64,000 nt of DNA from Octopus vulgaris. Its lineage: Eukaryota. The stretch lies in contig OX597834.1 in the NCBI GenBank assembly GCA_951406725.2, positions 7,626,001 through 7,690,000 on the forward strand. The letters are read 5' to 3'. The first letter of the stretch is position 1. Every line of letters begins with the position of its first letter. Shown here in pieces: positions 20,913 through 21,073 of the stretch. Position numbers and translations under genes: made by a program. Under the pieces are notes generated by a model. It saw only the letters and a program-made list of their open reading frames with translations, was not told the origin of the DNA and did no database searches.

Positions 20913-21073
20913 ACATTATTTACATTATTGACATTCGACGGATATTTGTCCTCATCGTGTTTGTTGTTAACACTGTTAACAACAAACAAGAGAGGACAAA
21001 TATCCGTCAAATGTAAATAATGTAAATAATGTAAATAATGTACGTAATTCCTCATCTCTTAAATATAGAACTT
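20913..21073. mobile_element. Head-to-head 3' fragments of family H4
   Basis: Arms match the H4 sequence downstream of the ribozyme; TATAATAATGT is repeated at 20902 and 21074. Confidence 0.8.

Follow-up and report, generated by a model that had tools for sequence, protein, structure and literature searches.

The window, that is, the whole stretch of 64,000 nucleotides analysed here (Octopus vulgaris, contig OX597834.1, positions 7,626,001 to 7,690,000), contains an insertion of 161 bases at 20913-21073, in which two inverted arms of the repeat family H4 are joined head to head (Table 1). Positions within H4 are numbered so that +1 is the first base 3' of the predicted hammerhead cut. The first-pass annotation had placed the start of the minus arm at 20973 and that of the plus arm one base later, at 20974, and this is borne out by alignment: the C at 20973, at the end of the minus arm, is the complement of the G at +1, and the T at 20974, where the plus arm starts, is +2. 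The junction is blunt, without microhomology, and its centre is the first base 3' of the predicted cut. The main arm has a deletion of one base at +20 and an additional 9-nt unit, AATGTAAAT; a difference between the two arms at +38 may be due to CpG decay. No ribozyme is contained in the hairpin. Because an 11-bp duplication surrounds the insertion and the arms differ in sequence, an assembly artefact is unlikely as its source; the junction was not spanned by DNA contigs from four sequencing runs, in which the unitigs break inside the repeat.

Table 1. Features of the window that belong to the H4 hairpin and to its relatives.
Feature	Position	Strand	Basis
Target-site duplication, left copy, 11 bp, TATAATAATGT	20902..20912	+	sequence
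Short inverted arm lacking the terminal tail, from pLTR +1 (20973) to about +59/+61	20913..20973	-	sequence
Junction: palindrome TGTTAACA twice, flanking the single central base 20973	20965..20981	.	sequence and palindrome list
Main arm, from pLTR +2 (20974) to the end of the tail, +83 = 21072	20974..21073	+	sequence
Target-site duplication, right copy, exact match to the left copy	21074..21084	+	sequence
Neighbouring head-to-head insertion of the same family, hammerhead kept in both arms	19946..20175	.	sequence
Reference minimal type I hammerhead (predicted)	20075..20120	+	geometry as in the available text of PMC4209133
Third family copy, one arm, hammerhead C15.2 changed to U	29376..29546	+	sequence

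The family majority around the cut is GAAACGTT/GTGTTAACAACAAAC. The earlier statement that full copies read so holds for this majority, but only one of the three ribozyme-bearing arms in the window matches it exactly (core at 20080-20115); of the other two, one (core at 20051-20016) lacks 21 nt after +5 and the other (core at 29428-29463) carries substitutions. The neighbouring insertion is bordered on each side by ATCCTTAAAACGGT, and its predicted cuts lie at 20115/20116 on the plus strand and at 20016/20015 on the minus strand. In the reference copy, helix I is GACAC/GUGUU, the core is CUGAUGA plus GAAA, and the palindrome is AACGUU. The order through the cut site is CUGAUGA, helix II, GAAA, C-G, U16.1, U17 and the cut, followed by GUGUU, which pairs with GACAC. 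It can be seen that a CUGANGA plus GAAA core, helices I and II, the extra base after position 9, the palindromic 15.2-16.2 and the NUH site of a minimal type I hammerhead are all present. The site thus has the correct geometry for a hammerhead, and the claim that both arms of the hairpin begin at it, at +1 and +2, is sustained. Rfam gave no hammerhead match, either at the gathering score or at E values up to 5, and its matches to miRNA families were discarded as reflecting hairpin shape only. In the lowest-energy fold the cut site is buried in a hairpin from -3 to +11 (GUUGU/ACAAC), and GUU is a weak cut triplet for hammerheads.

Other CUGAUGA...GAAA hammerhead-like cores, outside the H4 family, lie in the window at 27890-27954 and 27530-27553, both on the minus strand, and at 9733-9782, 10294-10343 and 10855-10904 on the minus strand inside a 561-bp tandem repeat. 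The window also contains a 127-bp inverted repeat of a different repeat family (19218-19484, 91% complementary, 13-nt loop) and a decayed reading frame on the plus strand (21317-21727), which presumably resembles the end of an RTE-type LINE ORF.

In the genome (2.8 Gb, 227 contigs), the 19-nt tail of H4 has 7,002 exact matches and the anchor from +21 to +39 has 6,694. The majority unit consists of a tRNA-like head (-185 to -111), an (AAT)n tract and a body of 177 nt which contains the hammerhead. At loci L361-L372 the repeat is continuous with an ORF carrying RT motifs; Pfam RVT_1 was found in two of five ORF pieces, with E values of 3e-6 (below the cut-off) and 7e-7 (at the cut-off). The repeat precedes the ORF in L368 and L367 and follows it in L361 and L367, as pLTRs flanking an ORF in partial tandem do. 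Since the body runs into the RT-motif ORF, and head and body appear again after the ORF end (L361), H4 is, as judged from its sequence, the pLTR of a Penelope-like element (PLE). Read by eye, the end of the ORF in L361 has what we take to be a GIY-YIG-like CCHH layout; Pfam detected no GIY-YIG domain in the decayed ORF pieces, that of L361 included. From the resemblance of its N-terminus and RT motifs, the element presumably belongs to the Penelope/Poseidon clade.

The tRNA-like head with its (AAT)n tract is seen on both sides of the RT ORF (L361:3367-3615, L368:766-1032, L367). Its motifs TGGCGTAGTGG and GTTCGATTC fit what we take to be the A- and B-box patterns; ARAGORN reported 0 tRNAs in ten loci, and Rfam no tRNA in L368. 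The occurrence of the head on both sides of the ORF suggests that the Penelope-like element itself has a Pol III-type promoter and that the head is not a separate SINE. A tRNA-derived SINE with a head limited to non-autonomous copies was rejected because the head also stands before or after the RT ORF (L368, L367, L361). A non-LTR retrozyme was likewise rejected, the hairpin being head to head and without a ribozyme, not a series of tandem units with whole hammerheads; a few loci (L011, L350) do contain short tandems. Four loci (L006:1209-1635, L012, L350, L352) carry a pLTR, about 40 codons of the ORF start and a second pLTR with one shared junction; such partial tandems lie mostly on contig C29 and possibly form a non-autonomous subfamily.

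Inverted arms of H4 end at about +50 to +59 and main arms at +82 to +85, and the tail is found on one side only. In 111 inverted arm pairs, a variant at +38 was common to both arms in 22, as compared with about 4 expected. Therefore, both arms of one insertion derive from one source, and derivation from two unrelated RNAs was dropped. To describe the usual 5' end, we used 75 arms at 60 loci, taken irrespective of their 5' end and all located within the initial 10 Mb of a single contig. The ribozyme 5' part was included in 61 of these 75 arms. Their 5' ends fell at the AAT tract or head in 42, at -87 to -41 in 14, at -40 to -5 in 5, at -4 to -1 in none, at +2 in 1 and at +4 to +21 in 2; a further 11 arms had internal deletions. 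Most of the head-bearing arms begin at the head itself, and both halves of the hammerhead core were intact in 17 of 62 unselected arms. Because unselected arms mostly run through the ribozyme and start at the head, the usual template is an uncut RNA, and with 61 of 75 arms retaining the ribozyme 5' part, cleavage is not the main route. Where arms start at the head, a short fold-back of the head's first bases is often present (L033, L041, L042, L153, L169), which suggests that the cDNA snapped back at the principal 5' end of the RNA. The initial DNA search was not used for the 5'-end histogram: only the best 40 of 3,307 candidates were scored in it, which favours full-length copies.

It had been proposed that a histogram of H4 5' ends should show a peak at the cut. 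We therefore carried out matched searches at +1, +3 and -3, each of which required non-consensus letters after a 19-nt anchor; every match was listed. These gave 54 rows or 44 events at +1 (11 rows belong to one array), 52 rows at +3 and 28 at -3. We checked 34, 35 and 28 loci, respectively, and judged the remaining 10 (+1) and 17 (+3) from the listing; same-strand deletions and point variants were excluded from true ends, and several junctions were called by eye. True 5' ends numbered 17 at +1, 11 at +3 and 5 at -3 (ambiguous, 4, 2 and 2), an excess at +1 of 1.8-2.3 fold over the controls (P 0.008-0.05). With a denominator of about 13,400 arms, estimated from anchor ratios, approximately 0.45% of arms end at +1, 0.24% at +3 and 0.15% at -3. 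The proposed peak is thus present at +1, but it is small and is absent among ends joined directly to flanking DNA (4 at +3, 4 at +1, 2 at -2 and 3 at -3); the excess sits in two-armed hairpins. About 15 of the 52 rows of the +3 search showed a recurrent deletion in which the first 25 nt of the head are joined to +3 through a shared TTAAC, with removal of the B box and the ribozyme 5' part (L258, L260, L264, L265, L278, L284 and about 9 more rows).

A filter for arms that lack the ribozyme in register had 311 matches, and 90 of the first 100 were analysed. Among these 90 loci there were 46 true ends, 8 at -19 to -5, 12 at -4 to +4 and 26 at +5 to +20, or 0.5 ends per nt upstream of the site vs 1.6 downstream, a step which the simulated pass rates of the filter do not explain. 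When matches in these loci were extended maximally, no end was scored at +1, and the biggest pile (8 of 46) lay at +18. With a narrower filter, by which several hairpin types are dropped, 100 of 175 matches were listed and judged by eye; 1 end fell at +1 and 9 ends at +2. A search at -2 gave 58 rows and, by eye, 18 true events, 15 of which share microhomology with a partner whose start is downstream of the site; it was not used for a rate because a +1 run-off with an added A is inseparable from microhomology. The pile at +18 (L064, L078, L086, L095, L104, L124, L144, L149) is not predicted by cleavage. The 5' edge of a 9-bp stem (+17 to +25 with +60 to +68) is located there, a T precedes the end in all 8 arms, and where a partner arm exists, it begins at +9 to +18 (5 of 5); possibly the pile marks another RNA end, to which one base was added.

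Stronger support comes from both arms of an insertion taken together. An inverted partner was present for 12 of the 17 arms at +1, and in 7 of these 12 it also started within -3 to +3 (two of the seven, L230 and L243, were read by eye). In contrast, none of the 9 partners of control arms (+3 and -3) started near the site (P 0.007); with ambiguous controls included the figure is 1 of 12 (P 0.027). Single arms at +1 thus stand at only about twice the background, and it is the presence of both arms at the site that is non-random. The first-pass annotation had described the window hairpin as a single event; this does not stand, since L243 (G000:C10:53245844) has exactly the same junction and the class is recurrent. 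Restarts were also found. A 17-nt unit restarting exactly at +1 is repeated in L253, L329, L232 and L400, and in L332 (G000:C28:27710536-27711750) a 46-nt unit, exactly +1 to +46, occurs in 26 tandem copies. Within the matched sets, +1 restarts number 3 of 17 vs 0 of 16, which is not significant alone (P 0.23). An inverted arm with a tail stands before the L332 array, which could have arisen by repeated template jumping, from a tiny circle or through later amplification.

The most serious alternative involves no cleavage. An 8-nt palindrome, TGTTAACA, occupies +2 to +9 and directly adjoins the predicted cut, so that cDNAs from uncut RNA might anneal through it and have their flaps trimmed to its edge, some pairs separating and rejoining bluntly or with filler; both ends would then fall at +1 to +3 by sequence coincidence. 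We read by eye all 50 short hairpins with intact anchors. Eleven of them are cleanly joined through TGTTAACA, the commonest centre, and this, like the confinement of the +1 excess to two-armed hairpins, is what annealing would give. The junctions themselves lean towards a hard stop at +1: the single unpaired +1 base is kept in 5 of 50, and a pairable flap reaching to -2 in 0 of 50. Among the other short hairpins, 5 of 50 show GTTGT microhomology, 1 of 50 is centred on AACGTT just upstream of the cut, and in 8 of 50 one arm extends clearly beyond -3 on the upstream side. As a control, GAAATTTC, an 8-nt palindrome lying upstream, is the centre of only 2 of 21 hairpins, against 14 of 50 at TGTTAACA; the difference is not significant (P 0.12), and one of the 21 (C18:76960327) has both ends near the edge of GAAATTTC. 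Also against annealing are the restarts at +1 in five loci and the partner counts: partners near the site accompany 7 of 12 arms at +1 and 0 of 7 arms at +3. We consider annealing without cleavage unlikely, though it is the strongest of the competing explanations.

Less probable still is a stall or snap-back of reverse transcriptase at structure in an uncut RNA, either helix I or the -3 to +11 hairpin (GUUGU/ACAAC). That hairpin is part of the lowest-energy fold, the five GTTGT junctions are those expected from cDNA snap-back on it, the head-start junctions show fold-back at an RNA 5' end, and the +18 pile lies at the edge of a stem. However, reverse transcriptase is expected to stall at the 3' edge of a helix, here +5 or +11 and not +1, and repeated run-off exactly at +1 fits the end of a template better than a pause. 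Chance, in the form of ordinary 5' truncation or a later symmetric deletion of the hairpin tip, is very improbable: a background of 0.15-0.4% of arms per nt would leave dozens of arms ending at any base genome-wide, so that the insertion at 20913-21073 alone could still be accidental, but for the class of hairpins that start at the site it is largely refuted by the presence of both arms there, the identical junction at L243 and the correlation between partners.

RNA was also considered. In three RNA-seq runs from one study, the organism of which may differ from this species, no pile of molecule starts was seen, at a threshold of one fifth of depth that has low power for a pool of a few percent. 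Reads on the element numbered 6,699, 5,409 and 4,960, with both orientations about equal, and the signal looks like read-through of embedded copies.

Taken together, the reading we favour, at a probability of roughly 60%, is that both cDNAs of the hairpin ran off an RNA which had presumably already cleaved itself, by a minor route. The original proposal, that the template was the 3' self-cleavage product and the hairpin a footprint of activity in vivo, is thereby retained in part: the +1 peak, the paired starts and the exact restarts speak for it, but the peak is small, the alternative based on TGTTAACA is weakened only, and cleavage is not the main route. The element protein would nick both target strands; one cDNA would start at the tail (+83/85) and the other at an internal site (about +52 to +59), both on one source RNA. 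The usual RNA probably starts at the tRNA-like head, about 185 nt upstream, so that the ribozyme would be copied whole. In a small share of cases the RNA would be cut, probably as a dimer through AACGUU, and both cDNAs would stop at +1; their joining would be blunt, involve filler, use the TGTTAACA palindrome or follow re-priming. About 0.5% of arms, those exactly at +1, may have arisen in this way, and at most a few percent when downstream ends are included. Products without head and ribozyme would be dead ends. With a little less assurance, though still on the favourable side of even, we propose in general terms that the PLE hammerhead cuts a few transcripts in the germ line and that the enzyme copies the 3' products on both arms into promoter-less, ribozyme-less hairpins; cleavage would then be a dead-end side route or brake and not a step of transposition, the element being driven by the tRNA-like head in its pLTR.

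With more than 13,000 scorable arms, the role of the PLE hammerhead becomes a question of counting. The counts suggest that cleavage does occur, but that only about 0.5% to a few percent of insertions derive from it, and this low share argues against cleavage or RNA circles as the main route. The paired-end test, which asks whether the partner arm is at the cut as well, is applicable to any genome rich in Penelope elements. The open-access literature covered yielded no report of genomic 5' ends at PLE hammerhead sites or of tRNA-headed pLTRs, and the available text of two octopus/SINE papers (PMC13282606, PMC10886601) does not describe the H4 family.

The two-armed layout is already known, and the class of PLE copies that start at the cut is unreported in the literature covered. 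The standard layout of a PLE insertion has two arms placed head to head, with the tail on one side (Craig 2021, PMC8557442, available text), and two RT start sites have been shown for an anole element (Frangieh 2024, PMC11167929, available text); the same portion of the latter reports that ribozyme mutants insert normally in vitro and has no reads at the site, and that of the former describes hammerhead function in PLEs as unclear. As far as the available text of these two papers goes, H4 shares with EN+ PLEs (Penelope/Poseidon) the inverted 5'-truncated copy, the tail on one arm, the AT-rich target, the two RT start sites, the hammerhead at the pLTR-ORF junction and the RT-coding ORF; it differs in a pLTR with a tRNA-like head and (AAT)n and in the cut-start copy class, which go unmentioned there. 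The minimal type I hammerheads of metazoan PLEs (Cervera and De la Pena 2014, PMC4209133, available text) have in common with that of H4 a short helix I, a longer helix II, the extra base between 9 and 10.1, the palindromic 15.2-16.2 and the lack of a helix III loop, and they are predicted to need a dimer. For them that text reports weak cleavage in vitro and states that in vivo evidence is absent, whereas the genomic ends of H4 point, indirectly, to a minor pool of cleaved RNA. Schistosoma SINE-like hammerhead repeats and non-LTR retrozymes, as presented in the available text of PMC6765202 and bioRxiv 10.64898/2026.07.22.740005, also combine a Pol III-type promoter with a downstream type I hammerhead and are linked to PLE pLTRs; they are head-to-tail tandems cut to monomers, whereas H4 is mostly dispersed and head to head, with its head also on ORF-bearing copies. 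A parallel for a cut site marked in genomic 5' junctions, with joins of variable microhomology, is the HDV-like ribozyme of R2 (Eickbush 2013, PMC3774820, available text). There the full element normally begins at the cut, whereas in H4 it lies inside the pLTR and marks less than 1% of arms.
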